Translations under genes and position numbers: made by a program | Notes under the pieces: model-generated | Told to the model about the DNA's origin: nothing | The model's database searches: none | The model's input: only the letters and a program-made list of their open reading frames with translations | Assembly (NCBI GenBank): GCA_023251675.1 | Contig: JAHEYJ010000001.1 | Span: 1,671-65,670, forward strand | Direction of reading: 5' to 3' | DNA length: 64,000 bases | From: Bacteroidota bacterium | Lineage (GTDB): Bacteria; Bacteroidota; Bacteroidia; Palsa-948 | Shown: in pieces, positions 124 through 5,193 of the stretch | How positions within the stretch are numbered: position 1 is the first letter of the stretch | Layout: each line of letters opens with the position of its first letter

Positions 124-600
124 ATGAAATTCAATTTCTATTTCCTTTTCGTTGCAGCATTGATGGTGAGTTTTTTTTGTATTCAGACAAATGCCCAACA
201 AGTACCACAAGGAATACCCCATGTAGATTTCACTTATGATGCCGCTGGCAACAGGGTGCTGCGTCAGTATACTGCGTTAAGAAATATGGGTGATACAACC
301 AAAAATAATGACGATGCCAAACAAATTGCAGCGCAATACGGCATTAGTGTTTATCCAAACCCAAGCACCAACGGAGATGCCGTTAATGTTAAAATTTCTT
401 TGCCTGCTTCTAATTCTGCAGAAACAGAAACTGCAACGATTTCTCTTTTAGATAATACCGGTAAACTGCTGTTTACACAAAAACAAACTACCGTATCTTC
501 CAATCAGATTGATCTAAGTAAATACACCGCCGGTGTTTATTATGTAAAAGTGATGATTGATAAAAAGCAGTTGTTTTATCGAATTGTGAAAGTGCAGTAA
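124..600 (+). CDS. small secreted protein: signal peptide + one YD/RHS-type repeat + T9SS type-A C-terminal sorting domain (copy 1)
   Basis: ORF track, 158 aa. N-terminal hydrophobic signal peptide (FLFVAALMVSFFCIQTNAQQ). YD-type motif HVDFTYDAAGNRVLRQY. The C-terminal ~80 aa (YPNPSTNGDAVNVKISLP...GVYYVKVMIDKKQLFYRIVKVQ) fits the Por_Secre_tail pattern. Near-identical paralogue at 2320. Confidence 0.7.
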   Translation: MKFNFYFLFVAALMVSFFCIQTNAQQVPQGIPHVDFTYDAAGNRVLRQYTALRNMGDTTKNNDDAKQIAAQYGISVYPNPSTNGDAVNVKISLPASNSAETETATISLLDNTGKLLFTQKQTTVSSNQIDLSKYTAGVYYVKVMIDKKQLFYRIVKVQ

Positions 601-634
601 TACTTTTACCTTTGTTCTTTTCAATTCAATATCA

Positions 635-1984
635 GTGCGCAGTTCCTTCAACAAAGCCCAAATCGTTTCTGAAGATGCTGATGAGTTTGATTTTACATAC
701 GGCCCCGATGACGAACGCAAGAAAACAATTCTGCAAAACAATAGCTTAATCCAAAGTACCCGGTATTTCTCTGGTGATTACGAAAAAACAATTGCAGGCA
801 GCAACGTTACCGAGGTGCATTACATCAGTGGCGGAAGCGGTTTGGCAGCCCTGTATGTAATTGAAAATGGAAACGGAACTATGTATTATCCGTACACCGA
901 TTACCTTGGCTCTATACTCACTGTTACAGATGATCAAGGCAACCCGGTAGCCGAACAAAGTTTTGATGCATGGGGAAGAAACAGAAATCCAGATGACTGG
1001 ACGGATCAGAACATACCGAGTGTTCCTTCATGGTTGTACCGTGGTTACACCGGCCACGAACACAATAAAGAATTCGCCCTCATCAACATGAACGGCAGAA
1101 TGTACGACCCTGTGGTGGGCAGAATGTTAAGTGCGGATAATAATTTACAGTTACCTGAATATTCCCAGAACTATAATCGGTATACATATGCTTTGAATAA
1201 TCCATTGAAGTTTACTGATCCTACAGGAAACGATTGGTATTATGATGCTGAGGGTATAGCAAAATGGGATAAAGATTTAACTGAGGAAAATTTTGCAGAT
1301 AAAATTAAAAATGGAAAATACATTGGTCAAACCTACCTACATATTTTTGATGACGGACACGCTGAATTCGGGGATCAAAAAGGGGAGTTGCTTCCATTAA
1401 AAATGCTTGAAGCAACAGATATCAGCGCTTCTCAATCAAACAACGAAAGTACTGCCACGGATAAAAATGCTTTTGTTCAGTCTGGTGCCGGCTATGAAGA
1501 TTATAACTACAATGAGGCAACTGGTAACTATGAATCGCAAAACCAGATAGAATGGAAGAAAACCGGAAAAGAGATGAGTGACTTTGCTGATTTTGCTGAC
1601 GATTTAATCATAAATACTACAATGACTATGGCTACGTGGGAACTTGGAGGTTCTGTTGGTTTAAAATGGGCATCAAAATATTTTTCAAAACCCGCAAGTA
1701 GTATTTTTTCTTATATAACCCCGCATATTACAAAGGATCTTGTAGCAAGAGGATGGACAAAGGAATTAATACATCTGGCTGTAAATAAATCTTTTACTAC
1801 AAGAGTTGCATTAGATAAAACAACGGGAGGAATATGGGAGGAAGCAACTGCATTCTACTTAAAAAAGGGGAAGGGATGGTATGTTGTTAGGAATAATATT
1901 TCTGGTAAGATTGTACAAATTAGTGATAGAACCAAACCTTGGTTTCCAGATCAAACGATCATTAATCCATATATTCCAAAATAG
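635..1984 (+). CDS. RHS repeat-associated core fragment fused to a variable C-terminal toxin domain (tip A)
   Basis: GTG start 35 nt after the stop of the small gene. Core-end motifs YRGYTGHEH...NMNGRMYDPVVGRMLSADN...NRYTYALNNPLKFTDPTGND match the canonical RHS core terminus (YYDPxxGRFLSxDP...NNPxxFxDPxG). The first ~190 aa are ~90% identical to ORF 2825 and diverge exactly after DPTG. The C-terminal ~260 aa are AT-rich and unrelated to tip B. The motif ITPHITKDLVARGWTKELI weakly resembles DUF4258-type toxin domains. At 449 aa it is too short to form an RHS shell, so it is treated as an orphan tip cassette. Confidence 0.75.
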   Translation: MRSSFNKAQIVSEDADEFDFTYGPDDERKKTILQNNSLIQSTRYFSGDYEKTIAGSNVTEVHYISGGSGLAALYVIENGNGTMYYPYTDYLGSILTVTDDQGNPVAEQSFDAWGRNRNPDDWTDQNIPSVPSWLYRGYTGHEHNKEFALINMNGRMYDPVVGRMLSADNNLQLPEYSQNYNRYTYALNNPLKFTDPTGNDWYYDAEGIAKWDKDLTEENFADKIKNGKYIGQTYLHIFDDGHAEFGDQKGELLPLKMLEATDISASQSNNESTATDKNAFVQSGAGYEDYNYNEATGNYESQNQIEWKKTGKEMSDFADFADDLIINTTMTMATWELGGSVGLKWASKYFSKPASSIFSYITPHITKDLVARGWTKELIHLAVNKSFTTRVALDKTTGGIWEEATAFYLKKGKGWYVVRNNISGKIVQISDRTKPWFPDQTIINPYIPK

Positions 1985-1988
1985 AGTT

Positions 1989-4246: not shown

Positions 4247-4636
4247 ATGAAAAACATTGAAGAAATTCGAGAGAAATTATTATTATTGAATAATTTTCAG
4301 GAATGCATAATTGAAAGTATTCGTTTTTTGAAATTTGCGACAACAATTGAAATTGATTTCGATTATATATGGGATGATAACAAAAACGTCAGAAAGAACT
4401 TGAAGGACAAAAAAATAATTACTTTAAGGTTTGAACTCGTAGAAAAATTTCTCCTCGAAAATATATTTACTCAAGGCATTGATAATGTTGATTTTCTGAA
4501 TTGGAGCTATAACGAAATAGCAATGATTAAGATTGAAGATGGTAATGATAAAAATAGGGTCAAGATATTTTGGGAAATCAATAGAAAGAGAAGTATTGAA
4601 TTGACATTTTCCTCCTTGGAAGTAATTAGTACTTAA
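4247..4636 (+). CDS. putative immunity protein for tip B
   Basis: 129-aa ORF starting 1 nt after the toxin stop. AT-rich, no signal peptide, and in the position typical of polymorphic-toxin immunity genes. Confidence 0.5.
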   Translation: MKNIEEIREKLLLLNNFQECIIESIRFLKFATTIEIDFDYIWDDNKNVRKNLKDKKIITLRFELVEKFLLENIFTQGIDNVDFLNWSYNEIAMIKIEDGNDKNRVKIFWEINRKRSIELTFSSLEVIST

Positions 4637-4695
4637 TGCCAATGTTCTGGATTTAGTCGTGTCGCAAAACGGTGATTCATTCAACTGCCGTATAA

Positions 4696-5193
4696 CAAGG
4701 AGTAATTGATATTTATAAAATTATAAAAGGAGCAAAGGCTGTTGCAGTTTTCCTCTTATCGGTTTTCTTCATTCAGGCAAATGCTCAACAAGTACCACAA
4801 GGAATACCCCATGTAGATTTCACTTATGATGCCGCTGGCAACAGGGTGCTGCGTCAGTATGCCGCTACGTTCAGAATAATGGGAGGAGATACAACACATG
4901 ATGAGCAAGCCGAACAAGTTGCAACGCAATACGGGATTAAGGTTTTTCCAAACCCTACTACGAGCGGAGATATGGTTAATGTTACAATAGCATTGCCAGT
5001 TTCTAACTCCGCAGAAACAGAAACTGCAACGGTTTCTCTTTTAGATAACACGGGTAAACTGCTGTTTACACAACAACAAACGACTACATCTTCCAATCCG
5101 ATGGATCTAAGCAAATACACCGCTGGTGTCTATTATGTAAAAGTTATGATAGATAAAAAGCAGTTGTTTTACAGAATAGTTAAAACAAAATAA
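4696..5193 (+). CDS. third YD + T9SS-CTD small protein (copy 3, ~75% aa identity), apparently lacking an ATG at its signal peptide; possibly 5'-truncated or a pseudogene
   Basis: The frame is open from 4696 and encodes a signal-peptide-like KGAKAVAVFLLSVFFIQANAQQVPQGIPHVDFTYDAAGNRVLRQY, but the first ATG is at 4846, inside the mature region. The C-terminal CTD is intact (…GVYYVKVMIDKKQLFYRIVKTK). Confidence 0.45.
   Translation, partial: QGVIDIYKIIKGAKAVAVFLLSVFFIQANAQQVPQGIPHVDFTYDAAGNRVLRQYAATFRIMGGDTTHDEQAEQVATQYGIKVFPNPTTSGDMVNVTIALPVSNSAETETATVSLLDNTGKLLFTQQQTTTSSNPMDLSKYTAGVYYVKVMIDKKQLFYRIVKTK

Follow-up and report, generated by a model that had tools for sequence, protein, structure and literature searches.

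Displaced-tip arrays of rearrangement hotspot (RHS) toxins have been described in Enterobacteria and others; in these, core fragments ending in PxxxxDPxG lead into unrelated tips, small open reading frames (ORFs) lie downstream of these and the whole serves as a recombination reservoir (PMC3150448). In 'Candidatus Ornithobacterium hominis', displaced tips lie beside SpvB/TcdB-type rhs genes (PMC6421346). The stretch analysed here (the window; 64,000 nt of contig JAHEYJ010000001.1, Bacteroidota bacterium assembly GCA_023251675.1) opens with an array that shares the features of the former. It is a displaced-tip array with putative immunity genes, probably of a Bacteroidota SpvB-type RHS system, and it differs from the known arrays in that its repeat unit contains an accessory gene. 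This small gene, situated 34 nt 5' of each core fragment, encodes a predicted signal peptide (SP), a single YD hairpin and a type IX secretion system (T9SS) C-terminal sorting domain (CTD), an architecture referred to below as SP-YD-CTD.

Genes of T9SS cargo have been noted beside rhs genes on two occasions. In Porphyromonas gingivalis 381, the T9SS-cargo gene PGN_1817 is located directly 5' of the largest Rhs gene, PGN_1818, within the rhs locus PGN_1816-1825; this locus was the most strongly induced during surface translocation, and its authors suggested a mechanistic link with the T9SS (PMC6775972). It resembles loci described below in having a CTD gene directly 5' of a full-length Rhs gene and then further rhs core/tip genes, but no interspersed copies of the small gene are described for it, and PGN_1817 is only a possible member of the present family. 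In Apibacter, most SpvB/TcdB-type rhs genes adjoin genes with type A sorting domains and are 'probably' T9SS-associated (PMC8125069). They match the full-length RHS partners of the loci below in their SpvB/TcdB N-terminal domains, the absence of PAAR and the type A CTD neighbour, whereas the adjacency was given only as a passing remark and the YD hairpin, the size of the family and its role in arrays were not described.

Two further systems bear comparison. TANFOR toxins are Bacteroidetes polymorphic toxins hypothesised to use the T9SS; they likewise have a signal peptide and lack a CTD themselves, and CTD genes are enriched in their vicinity, but their scaffold is TANFOR, not RHS (PMC7073777). 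The small CTD protein PorA, in which a FimH-like domain takes the place of a YD hairpin, has an accessory, non-cargo role (PMC7712824). That the T9SS takes part in antagonism between bacteria is so far hypothetical (PMC7073777, PMC8125069). As the association has been flagged twice, the type of system is not categorically new, and an earlier description of this array from its letters and ORFs (the sequence-only reading) overstated its novelty in calling the small genes unexplained, given the T9SS-cargo genes noted beside rhs (PMC6775972, PMC8125069) and the precedent of PorA (PMC7712824). In a full-text literature search, neither the SP-YD-CTD family nor its YD hairpin was found described, and no mechanism came to light. 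New here are the accessory family itself, the invariance of its hairpin and its linkage to RHS across the phylum, all undescribed before.

Domains, fold and conservation of the small protein

The Por_Secre_tail domain that had been read at the end of the small ORFs was confirmed by PF18962 (copy 1, E=1.6e-12, 47.9 bits; copy 2, E=2.1e-12, 47.6 bits; cutoff 27) and by TIGR04183 (copies 1 and 2, about 45 bits against a cutoff of 23; copy 3, E=2.9e-11). All three copies exceed the curated cutoffs for type A sorting domains, the PF18962 scores of the small proteins being 44-48 bits, with the match ending 2-7 residues from the C-terminus. By inspection, the N-terminus resembles a signal peptide in its K-rich n-region, its hydrophobic core and its xNA-Q site; an AlphaFold2 (AF2) model has a helix at residues 5-20. 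This model of the copy 1 protein (predicted local distance difference test score, pLDDT, 86) places a hairpin at 34-38/44-49 on the YD motif, a second helix at 63-72 and a seven-strand beta-sandwich at 74-157. Foldseek comparison of the sandwich with the PDB gave T9SS CTDs as best hits, namely mirolase (8qb1; TM-score on target 0.73) and translocon-bound NucA (8glk_D). The one YD repeat also claimed for the small protein stands as a motif but not as a profile match, there being no hit to RHS_repeat (PF05593) or YD repeat (TIGR01643) hidden Markov models (HMMs) on the small proteins at E<=0.1 (Pfam) or E<=0.01 (NCBIfam).

A word-indexed search with the small protein returned six relatives only. 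When 1.84 billion cluster representatives were searched exhaustively with a profile, 24,281 matched at E<=1e-3, 1,385 of them at E<=1e-10. Among the best 148 representatives, 134 are 120-200 aa in length and match the profile end to end; a YD-like motif occurs within the first 70 residues in 126 of these 134, and the starts of strict motifs cluster at residues 20-45. The family is thus described by a length of approximately 135-165 aa, an N-terminus resembling a signal peptide, a single YDxxGNRxxR, a linker and the CTD. Conservation was assessed on 36 aligned members, which share 25-59% identity with the window protein (mean column identity 32%). Positions M1, Q25, Y38, D39, G42, N43, P78, G113, G137 and Y139 are invariant, with R44 and R47 nearly so; conservation of the YD hairpin motif is therefore no lower than that of the CTD. 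In public databases members are annotated as 'T9SS type A sorting domain-containing', as 'YD repeat-containing' (some, by JGI) or as 'hypothetical'.

Ratios of non-synonymous to synonymous substitution (dN/dS) among the copies in the window and against the orthologue of the closest other species (locus L001, GCA_023251655.1) are 0.21-0.38, and the small gene is under purifying selection. Copy 3 is the exception in form: its codon at 4723, aligned with the ATG that starts copy 1, is ATA, no ATG, GTG or TTG start is present, and the same sequence is found in an independent contig (L029). Gene callers pass over this copy or begin it at an internal Met, for a product of 104 aa; copy 3 is a recent pseudogene or else a gene with a rare start codon.

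Association with RHS genes in other Bacteroidota

RHS homology was mapped by tblastn and HMM around 22 independent loci with a family member; L005/L006, L018 and L021, in which the CTD proteins are larger and do not have the SP-YD-CTD architecture, were left out of these counts. In 17 of the 22, DNA homologous to RHS is present on the strand of the small gene, which answers the suggestion to look for the gene pair in other Bacteroidota. The remaining five comprise one locus with a TNT toxin tip (L001), one with a core remnant (L022) and three on cut or very short contigs; every locus with long flanks shows RHS traces. At four loci chosen for contig extent alone (L025-L028), RHS DNA begins about 40 nt to 1.2 kb 3' of the small gene in all four. 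Small gene and RHS are thus associated across the phylum, and their pairing is not a local accident.

Two arrangements recur. In the first, seen in at least eight loci, 6-72 nt separate the end of the small gene from a downstream full-length RHS gene that encodes 1.7-2.4 thousand residues (among them L009, L010, L016, L017, L019, L025 and L028), L025 being the complete genome of a cultured isolate, Gaoshiqia sp. Z1-71 (CP186334); where no array exists, the small gene is a single copy in this position. RHS fragments lie downstream of the small gene in L023, L026 and L027. In the second, the small gene is found 3' of tip and immunity genes (L001, L008, L011-L014 and L022). L014 has an array in the order main RHS, immunity, small gene, orphan core, immunity, small gene; a main RHS gene followed by orphans is seen in L014 and L025. 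The junction found in the window, namely small gene, 34 nt and a 5'-truncated core, is specific to its lineage. Full-length RHS partners have their own signal peptides, and a Pfam scan of three of them (L009, L010 and L014) identified SpvB, FG-GAP and RHS repeats, two also possessing TcdB_toxin_midN; no CTD was found on these three.

These loci bear on the proposal that a larger T9SS-RHS gene has decayed and left the small ORFs behind, or that these ORFs are joined to RHS by frameshifting or recoding, both of which had been offered in the sequence-only reading. In the window, the frame of the first RHS fragment is open from 590 and overlaps the end of the small gene by 11 nt in the +1 frame, and copy 3 has no start codon, as either proposal might lead one to expect. 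Hundreds of homologues, however, share the 135-165-aa architecture under purifying selection, which makes the small gene a member of a large family and not a remnant. Fusion fares no better: the full-length loci have stops, spacers of 6-72 nt and a separate signal peptide on the RHS protein, no CTD-bearing RHS occurs among the scanned partners, no slippery site is evident by eye at 586-600, and joining the two frames would bury the CTD internally. Both proposals are considered very improbable.

Several other genes were seen at these loci. A signal-peptide protein is encoded just 5' of the small gene or of RHS at L009 8610-9884, L010 8932-9963, L011 23-1930 and L028 8926-9993, and all four proteins share a C-terminal coiled-coil motif, ..KIEELTLYxIxQxK.. 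Among the three scanned, those of L009 and L010 gave no family match and that of L011 matched Ig_7 only; this coiled-coil protein may be a third conserved component of the system. In L014, a gene at 447-1013 directly 5' of the full-length RHS gene encodes an OmpH/Skp-like periplasmic chaperone (just below the Pfam threshold); a Skp homologue belongs to the solved extended T9SS translocon (8gl8). At L005 2425-6587 (identical to L006), a gene for a 340-aa RHS core/tip protein is preceded by three others: one encodes an outer-membrane protein with DUF3575, and the other two encode larger CTD proteins, of which one is rich in FG-GAP/VCBS repeats. This is possibly another linkage of RHS and T9SS that does without the microprotein.

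Recombination between modules

The conserved recombining unit (Table 1) aligns between modules 1 and 2 at 89.6% identity over 1017 nt. Identity is unevenly distributed: in module 1 coordinates it amounts to 397 of 400 nt over 291-690, about 90% over 691-1040 and about 65% over 1041-1240, with none beyond, and the homology stops at the DPxG motif (approximately 1229 and 3419). The tract 291-690 covers the 3' two-thirds of the small gene, the spacer and the start of the core, as the near-identity previously noted from the 3' half of the small gene to the core start had implied. At the protein level, the conservation of about 90% claimed for modules 1 and 2 is approximately right, with 174 of 200 residues identical in the core and 86-89% identity between the small proteins.

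The signal-peptide region of copy 2 differs from that of copy 1, the remainder being near-identical. Copy 1 is equal to copy 3 at 60 of 60 nt over 203-262 and equal to copy 2 at about 100% from 290 onwards. Copy 1 is therefore a mosaic of the other two, and the breakpoint, near 265-290, falls inside the small gene; together with the near-identical tract, this upholds the claim that the small CTD gene lies inside the conserved recombining unit. The variable cassette comprises the last 60 or so codons of the core, the tip, the immunity gene and the 5' end of the next small gene, which codes for its signal peptide. It has homology on both sides because the repeat unit also holds a separate conserved small gene, and such flanking of tip/immunity cassettes is an unusual array design. 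Two homology arms would be available, one made up of the 3' part of the small gene, the spacer and the 5' part of the core and the other of the RHS core, and what would be exchanged between the arms is a cassette holding the tip, the immunity gene and the 5' end of a small gene.

The small gene also serves as a recombination arm in the array. It could be argued that it is kept there mainly for this purpose, its protein function being incidental: the near-identical tract crosses the gene boundary, copy 1 is a mosaic with its breakpoint near 265-290, the final copy has no start codon, and the variable cassette takes in the signal-peptide-coding end of the next small gene. A gene retained for its DNA alone would not be expected to show a dN/dS of 0.2-0.4, conservation across the phylum at a fixed length and single copies directly 5' of full-length RHS genes without an array, and this explanation is regarded as rather improbable. 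It is compatible with a role of the protein in RHS export (see below) and does not exclude it.

RHS cores, tips and immunity-like genes

The ORFs at 635 and 2825 had been taken as RHS cores, and both exceed the cutoff of TIGR03696 (Rhs_assc_core; 51.9 bits for 635-1984 and 52.2 bits for 2825-4246; cutoff 32.5). The cores end in NNPLKFTDPTG (nt 1196-1228) in module 1 and NNPLKFIDPSG (3386-3418) in module 2. Using the first 200 residues of the 635-1984 product as query, 385 RHS-core proteins were retrieved at E<=1e-10, mostly from Bacteroidota. With these HMM matches, homology that ends at the motif and tips that are unrelated, the interpretation of the region as an RHS orphan-tip array, with candidate immunity genes, is well founded.

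Tip A matches Colicin_E5 (PF12106, E=4.4e-12), a tRNase domain at aa 362-440 (nt 1718-1954). Tip B, a C-terminal domain of 273 aa, gave no Pfam or PDB sequence match, and as no family could be assigned, it is only presumed to be a toxin. In the closest other species (L001 3-635), the tip before the terminal small gene is a TNT domain (NAD+ glycohydrolase) with a 90-aa ORF downstream; the array slot therefore holds different toxins in related genomes.

An immunity-like ORF after tip B had been noted and is indeed present, but a second one follows tip A and contains an in-frame TAA. This codon is TAA in the window genome and codes for Ser, leaving the gene intact, in the 99.9%-identical metagenome contig L004; strains therefore differ in the integrity of this gene. 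The GC content of the immunity-like ORFs falls to 0.25-0.30. Neither gave a Pfam, NCBIfam or PDB sequence match; the protein of the second was also called on three other contigs.

The orphan 635-1984 encodes no signal peptide, and its GTG start is uncertain because the reading frame is already open from 590. Both spacers contain TACCTTTG about 20 nt 5' of each orphan-core GTG, which matches the Bacteroidetes -7 box TAnnTTTG. On this motif the orphan cores might have their own promoter in the spacer, although the box is only suggestive since TAnnTTTG is not enriched across the window (59 found, 58.7 expected). A sigma-70 promoter scan was uninformative (26 found, 21 expected), and terminator-like matches lie mostly within coding repeats. 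Orphan tips are probably silent reserve copies: they lack a signal peptide, their start is uncertain, and beside the intact tRNase tip stands an immunity gene interrupted by a nonsense codon.

Proposed coupling of RHS toxins to the T9SS

The proposal concerns the way in which the abundant signal-peptide-bearing SpvB-type RHS toxins of Bacteroidota would leave the cell. The C-terminus of an RHS protein is the toxin, which is held inside the shell and released at DPxG. This leaves no place for a CTD at that end, and an internal CTD cannot work as a T9SS signal. The small protein is a specific candidate for the factor that couples RHS to the T9SS. With a length of about 150 aa, it would enter the periplasm via Sec; the YD hairpin at its mature N-terminus would dock on RHS by beta-strand augmentation, the small protein would supply the CTD in trans to the toxin, and the T9SS would export the complex, tether it to the cell surface, or both.

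The docking step is modelled on the cocoon of Tc toxins, in which two polypeptides, TcB and TcC, join their YD-repeat beta-sheets into one RHS shell. RHS partners in related loci, though not in the window, carry SpvB, TcdB_toxin_midN and FG-GAP as TcB does. The small protein would contribute a single hairpin, not half a shell, and as the interaction is hypothetical the parallel is a working analogy only. Nor is a TcA partner, the pore with which the Tc components work, present here, although no search aimed at TcA was made. As a small upstream gene that would couple an effector to a secretion machine, it also recalls the adaptors of type VI secretion system (T6SS) Rhs effectors (Eag/DUF1795 with PAAR; PMC7773334), but these show no relation to it in sequence or fold, and the small protein would serve the T9SS, with a periplasmic two-step route and a putative function.

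There is about an even chance that the window holds the downstream, displaced-tip part of a signal-peptide/SpvB/FG-GAP/RHS locus equipped with a trans-CTD small protein, the main RHS gene lying off the window because assemblies break in the repeat. The odds are likewise balanced on whether the small protein physically couples RHS to the T9SS or to the cell surface. The piggyback form of this coupling, in which the YD hairpin would zip onto a periplasmic RHS cocoon and the CTD would take the complex through the T9SS and provide a surface anchor, is put forward tentatively and is open to considerable doubt. Recruitment in trans through the YD hairpin, one of the mechanisms suggested in the sequence-only reading, is nevertheless the best guess at present.

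A number of points weigh against the proposed coupling. The YD element of the small protein is recognised by its motif and not by a significant RHS_repeat HMM match, and when YD segments were aligned to partner RHS proteins they gave generic YD matches only, at varying positions, with no specific docking site. To our knowledge there is no reported case of the T9SS exporting a partner without a CTD. Copy 3 has lost its start codon and therefore not every copy is needed, and the TAnnTTTG box in the spacer could mean that the orphans are transcribed. Lastly, the position of the gene varies (about ten loci have it 5' of RHS and about nine 3' of tip/immunity genes), which is looser than a strict adaptor-effector operon.

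The variable position would also suit a small protein that is secreted by the T9SS and displayed at the surface but does not carry RHS, acting as a decoy, in kin protection or in signalling or regulation together with the toxin, after the manner of PorA. A regulatory role other than that of cargo has a precedent among small CTD proteins in PorA (PMC7712824), and only some 50 residues of the protein would remain after removal of the CTD. Yet nothing in the protein is more conserved than the YD motif, by which the RHS shell itself is recognised, and this points to an RHS-directed interaction, and the RHS partners examined have a signal peptide and no other evident outer-membrane route. A non-carrier role is therefore considered unlikely.

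Coupling of RHS to the T9SS by the small protein is directly testable, as it depends on a simple mutable feature (YD hairpin and CTD) and a cultured carrier exists in Gaoshiqia sp. Z1-71. In its piggyback form it would, if true, represent a T9SS-dependent route of RHS delivery widely used in Bacteroidota, and the first piggyback mode of T9SS export.

Layout and integrity of the array

Coordinates of the array are given in Table 1. The ORF anatomy of the sequence-only reading was essentially right, each ORF being found where it had been placed; the spacer, given there as 35 nt, is 34 nt. Of the three modules said to share the unit, the first two do so over about 1 kb, whereas the third consists of the small gene alone (about 0.41 kb, 84.7% identical to copy 1), followed not by an RHS core but by an unrelated SBBP/CHU_C gene.

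Table 1. Features of the displaced-tip array (window coordinates).
Feature	Position	Strand	Description	Evidence
Small gene copy 1	124-600	+	158 aa; predicted signal peptide, then YD hairpin (VDFTYDAAGNRVLRQY), a short helix and the type A CTD of the T9SS	PF18962, TIGR04183, AF2
Spacer 1	601-634	+	34 nt; same sequence as spacer 2; TACCTTTG at 607-614
Orphan RHS core + tip A	635-1984	+	449 aa, GTG start; core 635-1228	TIGR03696, Colicin_E5
Candidate immunity gene A	1989-2288	+	99 codons; interrupted by TAA at 2124-2126	Position alone
Small gene copy 2	2320-2790	+	156 aa; identical to database protein P0001	PF18962
Spacer 2	2791-2824	+	Identical to 601-634; TACCTTTG at 2797-2804
Orphan RHS core + tip B	2825-4246	+	473 aa, GTG start	TIGR03696
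Candidate immunity gene B	4247-4636	+	129 aa; start abuts stop of tip B	Position alone
Small gene copy 3	4723-5193	+	Last unit of the array; ATA for ATG; frame open from 4696
Conserved recombining unit	217-1229, again at 2407-3419	+	YD/CTD part of small gene, spacer, RHS core
5' part of the unit	181-591, again at 4771-5184	+	Shared with copy 3

Collapsed or mis-joined repeat copies could produce such an arrangement, and assemblies do break in this repeat: a 325-kb contig of another sample begins inside tip B, and the window itself begins only 123 nt 5' of copy 1. Three independent contigs nevertheless carry the order of the array. Matches were obtained to 877-2874 (L004, 99.9%), 3071-5616 (L029, 99.8%) and 3178-4815 (L030, 100%), with 600-877 lying outside this cover. 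L004, from another sample, spans tip A, immunity gene A, small gene copy 2 and core B, and L029 and L030, also from other samples, together span tip B, immunity gene B, small gene copy 3 and the SBBP gene. The concern that the array might be an assembly artefact was thereby answered for most junctions, which are reproduced at 99.8-100% identity, and an artefact is extremely improbable. The upstream main RHS gene was not recovered in look-ups with window proteins, which gave short contigs or the 325-kb contig beginning inside tip B, and an exact-match metagenome scan with the 5' flank of the window gave nothing.

Other genes of the window

Directly 3' of the array, 5205-7586 encodes a 793-aa protein with SBBP beta-propeller repeats, Ig_7 and a type B sorting domain (CHU_C/TIGR04131); judged by these domains, it is predicted to be another T9SS cargo. 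No gldKLMN or sprA genes were seen in the 64-kb window. A PorV/PorQ-family outer-membrane protein is encoded at 51072-52148 (134 bits, NCBIfam cutoff 90). It is preceded by two very large ORFs, one of 1244 aa (weakly TonB-receptor-like) and one of 1527 aa (no family match), and the stretch 42686-52148 may be a T9SS-related or surface-protein operon.

Sub-threshold matches were noted in several other large ORFs. The C-terminal part of a SiaA-like PP2C phosphatase was matched by 25125-28973 and by 58674-60941 (minus strand), and PorZ-like propeller repeats by 25125-28973 and 38338-41352; the three products look like large sensor or regulator proteins. Finally, the 863-aa ORF at 21807-24398 possesses beta-propeller repeats and a C-terminal caspase-like domain (sub-threshold, EACC1-associated caspase family).

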